A DNA stretch of 64,000 nucleotides from a virus, in IMG/VR virus record IMGVR_UViG_3300022911_000003, positions 4,814 through 68,813 of that record. The stretch is one strand, 5' to 3'. A model generated the notes under the pieces. It made no database searches. It worked only from the letters and a program-made list of their open reading frames with translations, and was not told the DNA's origin. Both the position numbers and the translations under genes were made by a program. Numbering within the stretch: the first letter of the stretch is position 1; every line of letters begins with the position of its first letter. Shown here in pieces: positions 2,854 through 41,124 of this stretch.

Positions 2854-3204
2854 GTGATTGAAACACCGCAGGACCGGGAAGACCGAATCGTTCAGCGCGT
2901 GCTGGCCTTTGCTACGGTCGCCATCGTTGCCTTCGTCGTGGTCATCCTTATGTTCAAGGAAATCCCGAACAAGAACGAGGTCATGATCGGCACCGTGATC
3001 GGATTTATCTTTGGGAACATGGCCGGGCCTATCTTCCGCAAGATATTCGGCGGCCCTGATTCGGGAACGCGCCAAGCTGTGGCTGCATCCAATGACGTGC
3101 TCAAGACGGCAGTCGCTGCTGCATCTGGCGTCCAAGGAAATCCTGTCGTTGTTCAGGCGCCGGCCGTCGTGACCGTAGAGCCAAATCCCAAGCCCGAGGA
3201 ATAA
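2854..3204 (+). CDS. Holin candidate (2 TM)
   Basis: GGGAG RBS; two TM helices with a hydrophilic C-terminus; precedes the endolysin. Confidence 0.55.
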   Translation: MIETPQDREDRIVQRVLAFATVAIVAFVVVILMFKEIPNKNEVMIGTVIGFIFGNMAGPIFRKIFGGPDSGTRQAVAASNDVLKTAVAAASGVQGNPVVVQAPAVVTVEPNPKPEE

Positions 3205-3206
3205 CC

Positions 3207-3425
3207 ATGACGCTCGCAGCGGCCTATACGGCGCAGTCCGGCACCTATCCCGAGTTCCTGCATGTCCATGACGCCGGCGACACGGTCCGCATCTCGGTTC
3301 GAGGCCCGGCCGTTCCGAACGATGATGGTGTTCTGACCGAAGGACCGACGGTTTCGATGACCATGCCGCGCGACAAGTACGTCAAACTTCTGAAACAAGC
3401 CCTGGAGCAAATGCCCGATGTTTGA
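3207..3425 (+). CDS. Hypothetical protein
   Basis: Tightly packed in the lysis operon. Confidence 0.6.
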   Translation: MTLAAAYTAQSGTYPEFLHVHDAGDTVRISVRGPAVPNDDGVLTEGPTVSMTMPRDKYVKLLKQALEQMPDV

Positions 3426-4026
3426 AACCCTGCAAAAGAACCTCGCGGCCAAGGGCCTGTACGGCGGCGCGATCGACGGCCTCACTGGTCCGAAAACTTA
3501 CTCAGGACTGATCCAGGCCATCGGGGCTCACATTGACCCAGTCAGACTGCCCGAACTGACTCAGGCCTTTTCTTTGAGGCTTGCACAGGGCCACATCGAC
3601 ACAGCGCTCAGGCTGTCGCACTTCATTGCTCAGTGCGCGCATGAGTCTGGCGGGTTCCATTACTGGTATGAGCTCGGCGGCCCGGACTATTTCAAGAAGT
3701 ACGACGGCCGGAAGGATCTCGGAAATACCTATCTCGGAGATGGATACCGATTCCGTGGTCGCGGCATCATTCAGCTTACCGGCCGAAGCAACTATTCCAA
3801 GTATGCCGCTGCTCTCGGCCTGGACCTGATAGGCAATCCCGAACTGGCTGCCACGACCGATGTCGCTGTCAGGATCGCTGTCCAGTTCTGGAACGACCAT
3901 GGTCTGTCAGCGCTTGCCGACAAGGATGACGTTCTGACGATCACGAAGCGAATCAATGGCGGAACCCGCGGACTTGCAGAGCGCAAAGCCTACTTGGTAA
4001 AAATGAAATCACTGTTCGGCATCTGA
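3418..4026 (+). CDS. Endolysin, glycoside hydrolase family 19
   Basis: HFIAQCAHESGGF, FRGRGIIQLTGRSNY and ITKRINGGTRGLAER are GH19 motifs. Confidence 0.92.
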   Translation: MFETLQKNLAAKGLYGGAIDGLTGPKTYSGLIQAIGAHIDPVRLPELTQAFSLRLAQGHIDTALRLSHFIAQCAHESGGFHYWYELGGPDYFKKYDGRKDLGNTYLGDGYRFRGRGIIQLTGRSNYSKYAAALGLDLIGNPELAATTDVAVRIAVQFWNDHGLSALADKDDVLTITKRINGGTRGLAERKAYLVKMKSLFGI

Positions 4027-7320: not shown

Positions 7321-7774
7321 GATCTTCGCTCCGTAGCTTTTCGTGGAGGGAGGCGGCGGCAACGAAGTCGGCAGACCACATTTCAAGCTCGCTGCGACTG
7401 TCGGAAAATGGCGAATACAGACGAAGTTCGCCAGTGCCCGTCTGCCTCTCTAGGCCGTAAAGGGGCGAGGTGTGCTTTTTGCCTGGGTATCTTTCCGTGG
7501 CGACCTTAGCAAACGGCTCCGTCACCTCTGCCGCTTCTTTAACAAGGAAGCGGAGGCGGGAGATGGTGGCGGCGGACTGGTTAGCTTCGCGGACAAGATC
7601 GGTTATGATCTCGTGCGCCTCAGATGCCTTGATAGCCACGCCATCCATAGATGAGCCATACTCCATGGCTTCTTCCACCGCTTCAGATACACTTCCCAGG
7701 AGTTGCCAAGCCTCGTTTTCTGGTGATGCATTCTCCCTTGCCGTTTCAGCCGTCACGTCTTGGATTGGGGTCAT
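7313..7774 (-). CDS. Hypothetical protein
   Basis: ATGA overlaps. Confidence 0.6.
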   Translation of the reverse strand: MTPIQDVTAETARENASPENEAWQLLGSVSEAVEEAMEYGSSMDGVAIKASEAHEIITDLVREANQSAATISRLRFLVKEAAEVTEPFAKVATERYPGKKHTSPLYGLERQTGTGELRLYSPFSDSRSELEMWSADFVAAASLHEKLRSEDHG

Positions 7775-19673: not shown

Positions 19674-20040
19674 GCGAAACCTGAGCGACGTCGAAAATCG
19701 GGATGAGATTCGGCGCGAGGCCCGTCTTGTCCTGCTGGCCCAGACTCCAGGCACTAGGTCCGAGATCAAGGAGATCGTGTTTCGAATCCTGAACCACTAC
19801 GAAAGCTTTGATCGACGTTCGATCGAGTCCAAGGCGATGCTGGTCGACGACTGGCTCGAGTCGTTGGCGGAGTGGCCGGCCGACGTTCTGCGGGGCATGG
19901 CAAAGGCTTGGCGCGAGAATCCGAAGTCGGAATATTTTCCGACCGTGGGCAAGGTCATCGACGAAATCCCGGCGCAGTTCAAGGATCGCTACAAGGCGAT
20001 GTATTCCGCGCAGCAGGTCGCTAAGCAGGAGTGGTTCTAA
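19555..20040 (+). CDS. Hypothetical protein (helicase loader/inhibitor-like position)
   Basis: DWLESLAEWPADVL...W...YFPTVG pattern; follows the initiator; start uncertain. Confidence 0.5.
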   Translation: MNQASTSLTVRPPESEITKAQCELLTSPISFLNKGIDALERNLSDVENRDEIRREARLVLLAQTPGTRSEIKEIVFRILNHYESFDRRSIESKAMLVDDWLESLAEWPADVLRGMAKAWRENPKSEYFPTVGKVIDEIPAQFKDRYKAMYSAQQVAKQEWF

Positions 20041-20834
20041 TGGCTGAAACTACAGGAATTTCGTGGACTGATTCTACAATCAACTTCTGGATAGGGTGCA
20101 CAAAAGTTGGACCTGGGTGTCAAAATTGCTACGCCGAGGCGATGAATCACAGGTTCGGCGGCGGCAACTGGGGTGCAGGAGCGCCGCGTAAGCGCACGGC
20201 TCAGGCCACGCGCAACAACCTGCTCAAGTGGCAGCGCGAGGCGGATAAGACCGGGGTCCGTCGAAAGGTGTTCATCAACTCCATGTCGGACTTCTGGGAC
20301 AACGAAGTGCCGATAGAATGGCGCGAGGAAGACGCCGTGGTCATGGCGGCGTGCGACGGTCTGGATCTGCAACTCGTGACGAAGCGGATTGGAAATGTGC
20401 CGAAACTCCTGCCAAGGGCGTGGTCGTCACATTGGCCAGCACATGTTTGGCAGATGATCACGGTCTGCAATCACGATGAATATTTGCGGGACACTCCCAA
20501 ATTGGCACCCGTTATCGACATGGGCTGCAAAGTCACAGGCCTGTCTGCCGAGCCGCTTCTTGGTCCAATCAGGGTAGGCGCCTATGCGGATATGCTTAAA
20601 TGGGTAATCGTCGGCGGTGAGTCTGGAAGCTTCGCGCGGCGCTACAATATCGAATGGGCCATGGATATCGCTGATAATTGCAGCCAATATGGCATCGCAT
20701 TTTTCCATAAGCAACTCGGCTCAAGACCTGTCGGCGTTGATGGCCGGCCGATCTACACCAAGGATAGGTCTGGAACGCATAGCGGTGATTGGCCTAAGAA
20801 TTTGTGCCGGCAAGAATTCCCGGTGGCCGCATGA
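20040..20834 (+). CDS. DUF5131 / phage Gp37Gp68 family protein
   Basis: TGISWTDSTINFWIGCTKVGPGCQNCYA, VFINSMSD and WVIVGGESG. Confidence 0.88.
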   Translation: MAETTGISWTDSTINFWIGCTKVGPGCQNCYAEAMNHRFGGGNWGAGAPRKRTAQATRNNLLKWQREADKTGVRRKVFINSMSDFWDNEVPIEWREEDAVVMAACDGLDLQLVTKRIGNVPKLLPRAWSSHWPAHVWQMITVCNHDEYLRDTPKLAPVIDMGCKVTGLSAEPLLGPIRVGAYADMLKWVIVGGESGSFARRYNIEWAMDIADNCSQYGIAFFHKQLGSRPVGVDGRPIYTKDRSGTHSGDWPKNLCRQEFPVAA

Positions 20835-32417: not shown

Positions 32418-32897
32418 AAAAAGACATCGTGTCGTAAAATAATTGCATCAAACGCTTTTCAGGGACTCAAGCCATATCAGGCAAGAAGGGAAGCGCGTTA
32501 CATGTGCCAGACATAGGCGCGGGAGCGTGCCACGCGGCGCGCCAGCCGGGGGCGGACGCTATAGAGCACCAGGTCAACGCCATGGCGCCTCCAGTCAACC
32601 GCTTTCGGCACAGACCCGCCGCACGGCCCATAAACTTCGCAGGACAACCCAGAACCGCGTCGACCGCCTCAACGCGGCCCGACGATCCGCCAAAGCCCGT
32701 CAGCGCTAAACCTGCCAGCCTCACGCGCCCCAACTCGCGCAAGACTCAAACCAGACCCAAAGTGAGCGCATCTACACAGACACATGATAGAGCGCTATCA
32801 CATACCAAAGGGCGCGCAGCGCCCGCAGGGTGATGACGAAACAAAGAAACAGGATTACATAACAAACAGCAGGCAAAAGCACCGGAGCAATAAAGCC

Positions 32898-33356
32898 ATG
32901 ACATTTCACGCCAATATAACGCCCGACGAAAAAAGCGACATCGTAACAAGAGCATGTGAACACGTCGCAAATGGACAAAGCCTCCGCGCCTTCTGCCGTA
33001 AGGAAAAACTGCCGTATTCAAGCGTTTATGACTGGTGTTCGGAGGCAACGCTTAACGGTCAATCCCCGCTCGTGCGGGCGCGCCAAGTCGGAACGCATTC
33101 CCTTGCGGATCAATGCTTAGAAGAGGCTGAGTCGATGACTTCGGAGAACTACCAGGCCAAAAAGGCAAAGGTTGACGCAATTCTCAGATTGGCCGGCAAA
33201 TGGAACAAGGCAGACTACGGCGAAGGCCCTCTTGTGGCCATTGATAACCGGCAGATGCCTGATTGGTCCATGCTGTCTGATGATGCCAGGGAGCAGGTGA
33301 AGGCGGCCCTTGCGGCGAAGGTTCAAGCCCTGCCGGCGCCTGATCGGTCATCCTGA
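32898..33356 (+). CDS. terS: Terminase small subunit (HTH type)
   Basis: ANGQSLRAFCRKEKLPYSSVYDW...RARQVG...LADQC...KVDAILRLAGKWNKADYG. Confidence 0.8.
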   Translation: MTFHANITPDEKSDIVTRACEHVANGQSLRAFCRKEKLPYSSVYDWCSEATLNGQSPLVRARQVGTHSLADQCLEEAESMTSENYQAKKAKVDAILRLAGKWNKADYGEGPLVAIDNRQMPDWSMLSDDAREQVKAALAAKVQALPAPDRSS

Positions 33357-39560: not shown

Positions 39561-39814
39561 GCCGGCCGACAGGAAAACCGGAATATAGGCTCGTCCTGGA
39601 AGCGGTACGGGACGAGATTCGCCACTTCGGCGCCACGGCAGAACTCGTGGTCGAGATGCCGCACCCCAAGATCGTTGTCACGCTTCAGGGCCTGACGCGG
39701 AAAATGGCTTTCGCCGGCAGTCCGAGGCGGGGTCAAGAAGACCAACTCCGTGCCATAAGACGTCAGGCCCGGCAGAAAATCGACGAAATGTGGATAGAGA
39801 TTACAGCGCTATGA
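39557..39814 (+). CDS. Small basic protein, possibly HicA-like fold
   Basis: PHPKIVV...FAGSP pattern; ATGA overlap. Confidence 0.4.
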   Translation: MSRPTGKPEYRLVLEAVRDEIRHFGATAELVVEMPHPKIVVTLQGLTRKMAFAGSPRRGQEDQLRAIRRQARQKIDEMWIEITAL

Positions 39815-39850
39815 TGCCTTGACCCGACCGCGTTGTGGCGCAATACCTAT

Positions 39851-39933
39851 CCCGTGTCGCGCTACCCTTCCCCCCAGGTCGAGGCACGACACATCGGGCC
39901 GCTGGTTCTCCGGATCAGCGGTCCTTTTCTTTT
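39851..39933 (+). ncRNA. Candidate small RNA with C-rich loop and its own terminator
   Basis: TTGACC-16-CAATAC upstream (39819); stem TGTCG/CGACA with loop CTTCCCCCCA; terminator GGGCCGCTGGT/ATCAGCGGTCC plus T-tract. Confidence 0.45.
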
Positions 39934-40098
39934 GCCATCCCCTGTGGATTGGGGGTAGGATTGAGACTGTGCGAAGCGGATACAGGAGTCCGTCGCAATG
40001 ACCTGCTGAATGCCTCTTTTTGTGCGTCCTTTGGATCGACACGGATTTGGGGCAACTGAAGACAGCGACCGCACACTCCCCATCTAGGGGATAGGAGA

Positions 40099-40333
40099 TT
40101 GCCTTCGGGCTATGATACCTGGCCGATCCGCAAGGGTCATAAATCCGTGACAGTTCCGCAAGGGGTCAGCGCGGTATAGAGAAGCGCCGATGGACAGCGC
40201 TCTGCCCCCGTCGAAAGGCGGGGGAGCAAGTTTTGCCTTCGGGCTAGTGAGGTTTGACCCAACGCATATGCGACAGGCCAGCACCTGTTTCTCTGCTGGG
40301 AGAGAAGGGTCAAGCATTTTTGCCTTCGGGCTA
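40099..40333 (+). repeat. Three exact copies of TTGCCTTCGGGCTA (40099, 40233, 40320)
   Basis: Read directly from the sequence; each forms a GCC-UUCG-GGC hairpin. Confidence 0.95.
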
Positions 40334-40338
40334 TGAGA

Positions 40339-40436
40339 TTGAGCGGCGGCGTTGACGGAAACGCGGCAAAACTAGATGCGTGGGCTACCCGGCGAGTGCT
40401 AGGTCCACTAGCCGGTATCCAATCCGGCCCGCTCAA
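40339..40436 (+). ncRNA. tRNA-like element with expanded anticodon region
   Basis: TTGAGCGG/CCGCTCAA acceptor stem, GCGT/ACGC D-arm, GCCGG-TATCCAAT-CCGGC T-arm. Confidence 0.6.
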
Positions 40437-40460
40437 TACCTCCCCGCTCTGTCGGGAATG

Positions 40461-40524
40461 AAGTGGATCGACTAGCGGTAAGTCACCCGTATAGGGCTTC
40501 GTAGGTTCAAATCCTGCTCCACTC
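40461..40524 (+). ncRNA. tRNA-like element with truncated anticodon arm
   Basis: AGTGGA/TCCACT stem, GACT-AGCGGTA-AGTC D-arm, CCC-GTATA-GGG mini arm, GTAGG-TTCAAAT-CCTGC T-arm; no encoded CCA. Confidence 0.7.
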
Positions 40525-40530
40525 GTGAAT

Positions 40531-40566
40531 CGCCAGGGGCTTCGGTCTCTGGCGGTTTTCTTTTTA
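40531..40566 (+). terminator. Intrinsic terminator closing the RNA locus
   Basis: CGCCAGGGGC-TTCG-GTCTCTGGCG followed by GTTTTCTTTTT. Confidence 0.85.
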
Positions 40567-40607
40567 TTGGTCCATGATGTGCGTCTGGCCGGGGAAGGAT
40601 CAGCATC

Positions 40608-40913
40608 ATGCACTACACCATGAGTCCAATTGTCGCCGTGGTCGTCGCGTTCTCTTACGTGATCTTCACGGTCCTGACCGTGTTGCATATCCGGGTCATT
40701 AAGCAAGACCGGGAATCCAGACTTATCTCTGCGGCCCTGATTGTAAAATGCAGTGCCTTGGCTTTTCTGTTTATGTCGTGGCTTATTCCGGACCATCCCT
40801 GGGTCAGCAGCATGAAAAATGTGCTCGGCTCCGTTGCTGCGGCCAGCCTGATCCTTCTTATCATGCTCAATTACCCAAAAATGGTCGCCGACCTGCTCGC
40901 AAAGAGGGGTTGA
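40608..40913 (+). CDS. 3-TM membrane protein
   Basis: GAAGGA RBS; three hydrophobic helices. Confidence 0.65.
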   Translation: MHYTMSPIVAVVVAFSYVIFTVLTVLHIRVIKQDRESRLISAALIVKCSALAFLFMSWLIPDHPWVSSMKNVLGSVAAASLILLIMLNYPKMVADLLAKRG

Positions 40914-40917
40914 GCCT

Positions 40918-41124
40918 GTGACGCATGACCTATCGTCTCAACTCACCGGGCCTCTGGGTGGGGCGCTGGCATTGGCCTTCGGTGCCGGATGTACCGCGGG
41001 TTGGGGCTTTGCCCACGTCTTCATAATCGCCGAAGCCAAAAAACGAATCAGCAAACTTGAAAGCCAGGTCGAGAGTCTTCAGGGCGAGGTAAAAAATATC
41101 CTGCGCGATCAGATCCGGCGCTGA
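40918..41124 (+). CDS. Small membrane protein with coiled coil
   Basis: GAGGGG RBS; TM segment then heptad repeat. Confidence 0.6.
   Translation: MTHDLSSQLTGPLGGALALAFGAGCTAGWGFAHVFIIAEAKKRISKLESQVESLQGEVKNILRDQIRR

Follow-up and report, generated by a model that had tools for sequence, protein, structure and literature searches.

What kind of element fills positions 39935-40566 of a phage genome, where some 600 nucleotides (nt) lie between two terminators and identical short hairpins stand between separately folded modules? We addressed this question in a 64,000-nt stretch of DNA (hereafter the window, meaning the whole stretch that was analyzed), which belongs to the 70,956-nt IMG/VR virus record IMGVR_UViG_3300022911_000003, estimated to be ~78% complete. 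The repeats, the non-coding status, the bracketing terminators, the confinement of stable tetraloops to one strand, and the z score of the fold together indicate that this array is a real RNA-level feature read from the plus strand. Judged from its sequence, the array is best seen as tRNA-derived and not as a wholly new class of RNA, because its last module (module 4) is a member of the Rfam tRNA family. We give about an even chance to the proposal that this plus-strand non-coding unit of ~630 nt is a precursor of several non-decoding tRNA look-alikes, of the kind represented by rnaC/rnaD of T4 and RNA2/RNA3 of T5. This proposal competes mainly with three others, in which the array is a tRNA-cluster remnant devoid of function, one large RNA, or a leader acting in cis.

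A non-coding unit on the plus strand

The array is bracketed by two intrinsic terminators on the plus strand, T1 (39896-39934) and T2 (40527-40566), and position 39935 is the first base past T1. All open reading frames (ORFs) within 39835-40566 have negative codon-usage scores (-0.23 to -0.38 bits/codon) with a G+C content at second codon positions (GC2) equal to or above that at third positions (GC3), whereas the genuine genes of the phage score +0.08 to +0.50 with GC3 well above GC2. A minus-strand ORF of 219 amino acids (aa) at 40137-40796 has a negative codon score as well, and a Pfam search with it gave no match. A coding reading of 39835-40566 was rejected on these negative scores and the missing GC3 > GC2 pattern. 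Two observations of the initial annotation, that about 600 nt hold no credible ORF and that a terminator closes the region, are thereby borne out, the latter being T2, which is strong, with a stem of 14 base pairs (bp) and a U run.

Hairpins capped by UUCG or GNRA (stem of at least 3 bp) occur nine times on the plus strand of the array and not once on its minus strand, against a genome mean of 1.8 per kb on either strand. No other 632-nt interval in the 64 kb is as dense in such stable-tetraloop hairpins; the runner-up, a plus-strand region at ~20000-20800 in or near DUF5131 and OmpR-like genes, has three in 632 nt. The whole region also folds better than shuffled sequence (z = -3.0, 20 shuffles). 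Folds were computed for separate pieces and for all 632 nt together, and both agree on locally closed modules, which confirms the distinct folded modules described at the outset. The suggestion of a polycistronic precursor, made at the same time, suits these separately closed modules and the repeated delimiters better than one large fold does. The features of the locus are as follows.

39818-39895, plus strand: leader or small RNA; promoter-like CTTGAC ... CTATCC, then a hairpin with a C-rich loop; outside the array, feeding into it
39896-39934, plus strand: terminator T1, intrinsic, strong; 13-bp stem and U run
39939-39960, plus strand: delimiter p0; CCCC/GGGG hairpin, then UAGGA
39961-40076, plus strand: module 0; several hairpins, many GGA motifs; the least well-defined fold
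40077-40096, plus strand: delimiter p1; UCCCC/GGGGA hairpin, then UAGGA; pair probability 0.97
40099-40115, plus strand: delimiter p2, repeat copy 1; UUGCCUUCGGGCUA followed by UGA
40115-40232, plus strand: module 1; stem-closed domain with two GCAA hairpins, then a GAAA-capped hairpin and a U run
40233-40250, plus strand: delimiter p3, repeat copy 2; UUGCCUUCGGGCUA followed by GUGA
40252-40315, plus strand: module 2; mini cloverleaf of 64 nt, closed by a 9-bp stem and bearing three hairpins
40320-40336, plus strand: delimiter p4, repeat copy 3; UUGCCUUCGGGCUA followed by UGA
40335-40442, plus strand: module 3; junction with tRNA wiring and a 9-12-bp closing stem
40443-40461, plus strand: delimiter p5; CCCG/CGGG hairpin, then AAUGA
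40461-40525, plus strand: module 4; tRNA-family gene with a truncated anticodon arm
40527-40566, plus strand: terminator T2, intrinsic; 14-bp stem, cUUCGg loop, U run; z = -5.6, p 0.99

The same folds bear on the idea, which we consider unlikely, that the array is one large ornate RNA working as a single whole, as do GOLLD, ROOL, or OLE. The z score of the whole-region fold is in keeping with such an RNA, as is the tendency of GOLLD, ROOL, and OLE to adjoin tRNAs in phages, and the array would be closed by a 21-bp duplex predicted between 39952-39976 and 40497-40520 (p about 0.9). This complementarity of ~21 bp joins the 5' part of the array to the T-arm half of module 4 and dominates the full-length fold. 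However, the closing duplex is marginal, as it is equalled in ~3% of genomic control windows, and it destroys the tRNA fold of module 4; with p about 0.03, we did not accept this long-range 5'-3' helix as significant. All other high-probability helices are local. With Rfam 15 there was no gathering-score match in the 64-kb window, and GOLLD, ROOL, and OLE are absent from the region at E <= 10, so that no large-RNA family matches. The pairing could mask module 4 in an unprocessed precursor.

Module 4 and the other modules

Module 4 matches the tRNA family RF00005 of Rfam from end to end (model positions 1-71) with 33.7 bits (gathering score 29, E 4.5e-6), a match that appears only when a short stretch (96 nt) is searched, which relaxes the filters; it was filtered out of the 64-kb and 1-kb searches. 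Its only departure from the model is the anticodon stem-loop, where 11 model positions are reduced to 5 nt. The anticodon arm consequently has 11 nt (3 bp and a 5-nt loop) in place of 17, rather than a 5-bp stem with a 7-nt loop, and with such a stub module 4 is evidently unable to decode. The remainder of the tRNA body is retained: an acceptor stem of 6-7 bp, a 4-bp D-stem, a 5-bp T-stem, the D-loop AGCGGUA (A14, G15, G18G19), the T-loop UUCAAAU, and U8. The elbow has G15-C48, U54U55C56, and G53-C61, with a 4-nt variable region that ends in C, and the contacts of the L-shape are all predicted to be intact. Positions A1 and C72 are mismatched, and CCA is not encoded. ARAGORN rejected module 4 at default and called it at -ps80 with an undetermined anticodon. 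Compared with 57 distinct ARAGORN tRNAs from the collected loci, module 4 is nearest to tRNA-Gln(UUG) (score 61 vs 49 for the runner-up), and it is a tRNA-Gln that its D-arm and T-arm most resemble. By its sequence, module 4 is derived from a tRNA, most like tRNA-Gln, and the cloverleaf accounts for 53% of its own ensemble. In the 64-kb window as a whole, ARAGORN at default found no canonical tRNA; a permuted tmRNA was returned only at -ps70 and without a recognizable tag, and was rejected, and neither the default search nor the Rfam tmRNA models gave any tmRNA.

Modules 2, 3, and 4 have the same predicted wiring, which runs from the closing stem through a 2-nt linker, a first hairpin, a 1-nt linker, and a central arm to a 5-bp hairpin stacked on the closing stem. 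Module 2 folds into a four-way junction (z = -3.9, 42% of the ensemble) whose helices have p 0.70-0.99 in the full-length fold, and its adjacent loops CCAGC and GCUGG are, from the sequence, mutually complementary, in agreement with the kissing-loop cloverleaf proposed earlier. Module 3 has a 5-bp D-like hairpin with GG in the loop, an enlarged central arm, and a T-like hairpin (5 bp, 8-nt loop) that abuts the closing stem; its helices have p 0.83-0.99 in the full-length fold, with z = -2.3. Of the two tRNA mimics named in the initial annotation, one is substantiated by the tRNA-family match of module 4, whereas module 3 is tRNA-shaped in its wiring only. Modules 0-3 match no Rfam family at E <= 10. 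The notion that the array might found a new family therefore holds in so far as modules 0-3 match no family and the array lies outside the large-RNA families of Rfam, but a wholly new RNA class is not upheld, module 4 being a tRNA.

In module 1, the two GCAA loops seen at first each cap a 5-bp hairpin (40125-40138 and 40153-40166) and originate from an internal 22-nt repeat. The GAAA-capped hairpin is likewise present; it has 8 contiguous bp (40205-40224, p 0.98) and not the 12 bp first given, and its domain has z = -3.1. Module 0 together with its flanks (39935-40098) is rich in GGA/GGAU, with several of these motifs in predicted loops, and a predicted CGGA-UACAGGAG-UCCG hairpin within it resembles CsrA/RsmA-type binding sites.

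A tRNA with a deletion at module 4, next to cloverleaf-shaped modules 2 and 3 that no longer give any tRNA score, could also be a decayed remnant of a former phage tRNA cluster without present function, the more so as the nearest relatives lack the array and conservation is not demonstrable. We consider this rather unlikely. Across 14-17 nt the three repeated delimiters show no difference, yet the intervening modules have no common sequence, the excess of UUCG/GNRA-capped hairpins on one strand is strong, and the stems of the modules are near-perfect. Moreover, module 4 retains every nucleotide that makes an L-shape contact, and its stub forms a clean hairpin.

Delimiters, upstream leader, and the search for relatives

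The three exact copies of TTGCCTTCGGGCTA reported in the initial annotation (40099, 40233, and 40320) were verified, all on the plus strand. There are no further copies in the 64 kb at up to two mismatches, and the GCCTTCGGGC core has just one additional occurrence in the 71-kb record. Copies 1 and 3 are identical across 17 nt, and the start-to-start spacings are 134 and 87 nt. The three exact repeats (UUGCCUUCGGGCUA) are a subset of a pattern of six delimiters, in which a G+C hairpin of 3-4 bp is directly followed by UAGGA, UAUGA, UAGUGA, or AAUGA (UAKGA pattern). These sites (39939, 40077, 40101, 40235, 40322, and 40443) precede each module. Six in 0.67 kb compare with an expectation of 0.13 derived from both strands of the window outside this region; with the pattern defined post hoc, after the three repeats had been seen, the fair count is three extra non-identical sites (hairpin plus WAKGA) against ~0.1 expected. 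Because the UUCG hairpins are weak and yet identical in sequence, it would be the sequence of the delimiters rather than their stability that is kept. This suggests that a protein or another RNA recognizes them.

Such repeats might alternatively act in the DNA, as 14-17-bp binding sites for a protein (origin iterons, operators, or packaging sites). Exact direct repeats within the largest clearly ORF-free stretch of the area would suit such an element, but it is very improbable in our judgment, as the repeats are widely and irregularly spaced (134 and 87 bp), the RNA-type signals (UUCG, GNRA, T-loop, and terminators) are all on one strand, one module is a tRNA-family sequence, and an AT-rich unwinding region is absent. 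Two other candidates were rejected. The repeats are not sigma-70 promoters, as a -35 element is absent at the proper distance. Nor are they a CRISPR array or an RNA anti-CRISPR, membership of which takes repeats of ~23-37 nt, a Cas-type hairpin, and spacers of uniform length; the repeats here have 14-17 nt with a 3-bp stem, and the spacing is irregular (134 and 87 nt). The UGCCUUCGGGCU core of the delimiter is contained in the 36-nt repeat of CRISPR arrays on six metagenome contigs (L236, L239, L243, L246, L253, and L258); this core is what the search selected for, these arrays differ in appearance from the delimiter array, and the contigs have no other tie to the phage.

Upstream of the array, the leader hairpin has the C-rich loop CCCUUCCCCCC, with the strong terminator T1 downstream, and the segment 39850-39934 folds with z = -3.7. 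Rfam returned weak matches of the leader to the C-rich-loop small RNAs 6C, sX13, and mmgR, and 39818-39934 could be a short terminated leader or small RNA. In contigs related by TerL, we recognized by eye the order TTGACC-N16-CTATCC or CTATAT, then CGTGTCGGGA, then a terminator (L404:2972-3090, L404:~7578-7612, and L405:~2915-3040), a likeness that a MAFFT alignment did not anchor. This suggests a promoter/leader type common to these phages. In L404 (58% TerL identity), the sole relative readable through to the next gene, the leader directly abuts that gene.

The leader raises the alternative that the array is itself a cis-acting leader of the downstream genes, working by read-through or antitermination in a position like that of the tRNA-bearing late leaders of lambdoid phages. 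The array does lie between the promoter-like site with T1 and the next plus-strand genes, T2 ends 42 nt ahead of the start codon at 40608, and the promoter-plus-terminator leader recurs, by eye, in the relatives. However, relatives such as L404 keep the leader without the array, so that the array is an add-on and dispensable for that control, and no riboswitch, T-box, or other leader family in Rfam matches the region; we therefore hold a cis-acting leader to be distinctly improbable. Because the relatives are without the array in the fetched parts of their contigs and the leader of L404 directly meets the next gene, the array looks like a lineage-specific addition.

The phage itself, from soil, is a tailed phage, as confirmed by replication, recombination, methylase, and packaging genes, with both TerL and portal present. 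Its DNA is present in two leaf-litter metagenome runs, and the sequence is identical in both, so that there is no natural variation to compare. Among cultured phages, TerL identity does not exceed 43%, with Rhizobium and Erythrobacter phages the nearest; in a large protein collection, the three closest TerL relatives have 58-67% identity, and the named homologues are mainly from Hyphomicrobiales and other alphaproteobacteria. The array follows the final gene of the upstream block and precedes small membrane-protein genes, in a non-coding interval that extends from the upstream stop at 39814 to the next start codon at 40608, and is the largest clearly ORF-free stretch in its part of the genome. 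The genes directly after it (40608-41124) encode small membrane proteins of 101 aa (no family) and 68 aa (a sub-threshold LapA-like match), for which a holin label would be a guess. The sole recognizable lysis enzyme (GH19-type, 3418-4026) and an Sf6-type small terminase (32784-33356) are both far from TerL (44133).

We then searched for relatives of the array. A blastn search against cultured phages and plasmids gave no homologue, and neither nhmmer nor blastn found the array in 80 TerL-related viral loci. The exact 14-mer TTGCCTTCGGGCTA gave 87 single chance matches in IMG/VR, some of them in variable arms of tRNAs, and patterns with two copies of the hairpin returned only CRISPR arrays, coding repeats, and terminators from IMG/VR and the JGI metagenomes. 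The flanking proteins are either without relatives or have relatives in other contexts. A pattern scan of IMG/VR for tRNA-Gln-like genes with a shortened anticodon region gave nine matches with two plausible analogues (L306:2546-2616 and L298); in GTDB genomes this pattern yielded only ordinary class II tRNAs and tmRNAs. The analogue at L306:2546-2616, from a large AT-rich phage, has a T-arm, a mini-hairpin of 4 bp with GUAA, and a D-arm that matches that of module 4 save for one compensated pair. The same contig (IMGVR_UViG_3300027749_000049) carries at 2090-2720 a row of non-canonical tRNA-like genes with a common acceptor (AGTCAGG/CCTGACT) and variable inserts in the anticodon region, of which ARAGORN calls one alone, as tRNA-SeC.

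Proposed mechanism and comparison with known systems

If the array is a precursor of tRNA look-alikes, a single transcript would arise through read-through of T1 or from a weak promoter at 39932-39961. RNase P, as part of host tRNA processing, may cleave 5' to the acceptor-like stems, and cuts of the RNase E type may fall in the U-rich linkers, with the delimiters insulating the folds and marking the cut sites. Module 4 would then mimic the body of a tRNA without decoding, and modules 2 and 3 would copy the cloverleaf wiring. The freed look-alikes might occupy or distract a host factor that recognizes the tRNA body, conceivably a defense nuclease or a modification or processing enzyme, in parallel to the tRNA-like stable RNAs of T4 and T5. 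The putative decoy role against tRNA-cleaving or RNA-sensing defenses suggested in the initial annotation is possible in this sense.

Several points weigh against a precursor of tRNA look-alikes. We infer, from the sequence, both transcription as one unit and cutting. In the full-length fold the T-arm of module 4 is predicted to pair with 39952-39976 instead of forming the cloverleaf, and in principle module 4 could have arisen from an ordinary tRNA by one 6-nt deletion. The tRNA model gave no match at E <= 10 for modules 2 and 3 (40230-40450), whose tRNA-likeness consists in their predicted wiring alone. Besides the post hoc definition of the delimiter pattern, the UUCG hairpins, with 3 bp each, have marginal thermodynamic stability (-4.2 kcal/mol, p <= 0.65). 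The array is not in the fetched parts of four contigs from the TerL relatives with 58-67% identity, and with no homologue from any search there is no evidence of covariation or conservation; the locus is a single orphan example.

We also give a small chance to a bolder version, in which the locus is a phage RNA operon with a grammar of its own (G+C hairpin plus UAKGA) that is read by a dedicated phage or host endonuclease. This would release tRNA-body mimics and kissing-loop cloverleaves that act jointly as counter-defense or as titrators of tRNA-binding host factors. The locus is unusually clean for the study of non-decoding tRNA-like RNAs, with no working tRNAs nearby and with its own terminators, and it combines an anticodon-less tRNA, two progressively less tRNA-like cloverleaves, and an exactly repeated delimiter as a putative processing signal. 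Provided that the RNAs are produced and processed, it would be a compact test bed for the role of an anticodon-less tRNA body in a phage (e.g., as a decoy for tRNA-targeting defenses or a sink for processing and modifying enzymes) and for how such precursors are cut.

Among known systems, the YrlA (RF02553)/Rsr system is comparable in that it includes phage arrays in which several tRNA-mimicking non-coding RNAs add up to a similar length. In 19 phage Ro60 loci, of which 11 were scanned with Rfam, seven have YrlA-type matches (mostly upstream of Ro60) and two have tRNA clusters, and the Ro60-adjacent phage arrays are the known Rsr-Y RNA system. For instance, contig L278 (IMGVR_UViG_3300023201_000034) has at 760-2764 an ORF-free tRNA-like/Y RNA-like array of ~600 nt with GGTTACTTC three times and a partial YrlA match (31 bits), immediately ahead of a TROVE/Ro60+vWA gene, with a tRNA (anticodon CUA) following. 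A contig of this type has a TerL N-terminal domain 51% identical to that of the phage studied here. The existence in other phages of such ~600-nt arrays directly upstream of a TROVE/Ro60 gene, one of them on a contig sharing this TerL domain, raises the idea that the array is a YrlA-like cluster working with Ro60/Rsr; we rejected its membership, and the idea is scarcely credible. Although the same tool detects YrlA at 31-54 bits in phage Ro60 loci, there is no YrlA match at E <= 10 anywhere in 39700-40700, and no TROVE match at E <= 1, hence no Rsr gene, in the 70,956-nt record, which leaves the remaining part of the phage uncovered. In addition, the arms of module 4 come in the normal tRNA order, whereas in YrlA the T-arm precedes the D-arm; the Ro60-adjacent arrays have a GGUUACUUC-type motif that is absent here, with no other motif in common; and nhmmer and blastn found no sequence similarity to the 19 Ro60 loci.

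GOLLD and ROOL are alike in being large structured non-coding phage regions, often beside tRNAs, but differ in having one large conserved fold where this locus has a chain of small, locally closed modules. The tRNA-like 3' modules of MALAT1 and MEN-beta (mascRNA/menRNA) have a shortened anticodon arm and are recognized by RNase P; they are eukaryotic and nuclear, and there the 3' end of the upstream RNA is formed by means of the module (PMC11693755). The likeness is that of a longer non-coding transcript with a tRNA look-alike at its 3' end (PMC11693755), whereas in the phage array the module is succeeded by a terminator and several modules stand in a row. With canonical tRNA-Gln (RF00005), module 4 shares the acceptor, D-, and T-arms, and differs from it in the anticodon stub, the A1-C72 mismatch, and the missing CCA.

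The closest comparison is with T4 and T5. The rnaC and rnaD of T4 (species 1 and 2) are the classical tRNA-like stable RNAs. In the T5 record NC_005859, rna2 is annotated as "tRNA-like stable RNA with unknown functions" and rna3 as "putative tRNA-like RNA", both inside the tRNA cluster. To our knowledge, no function has been assigned so far to these non-decoding RNAs of T4 and T5. They lie within working tRNA clusters, whereas the 64-kb window is without a canonical tRNA; they have no sequence similarity to the array, which has identical hairpin delimiters and a terminator pair of its own. What the loci have in common is a phage-encoded tRNA-like fold without a usable anticodon, here module 4, and a head-to-tail arrangement of small RNA genes.

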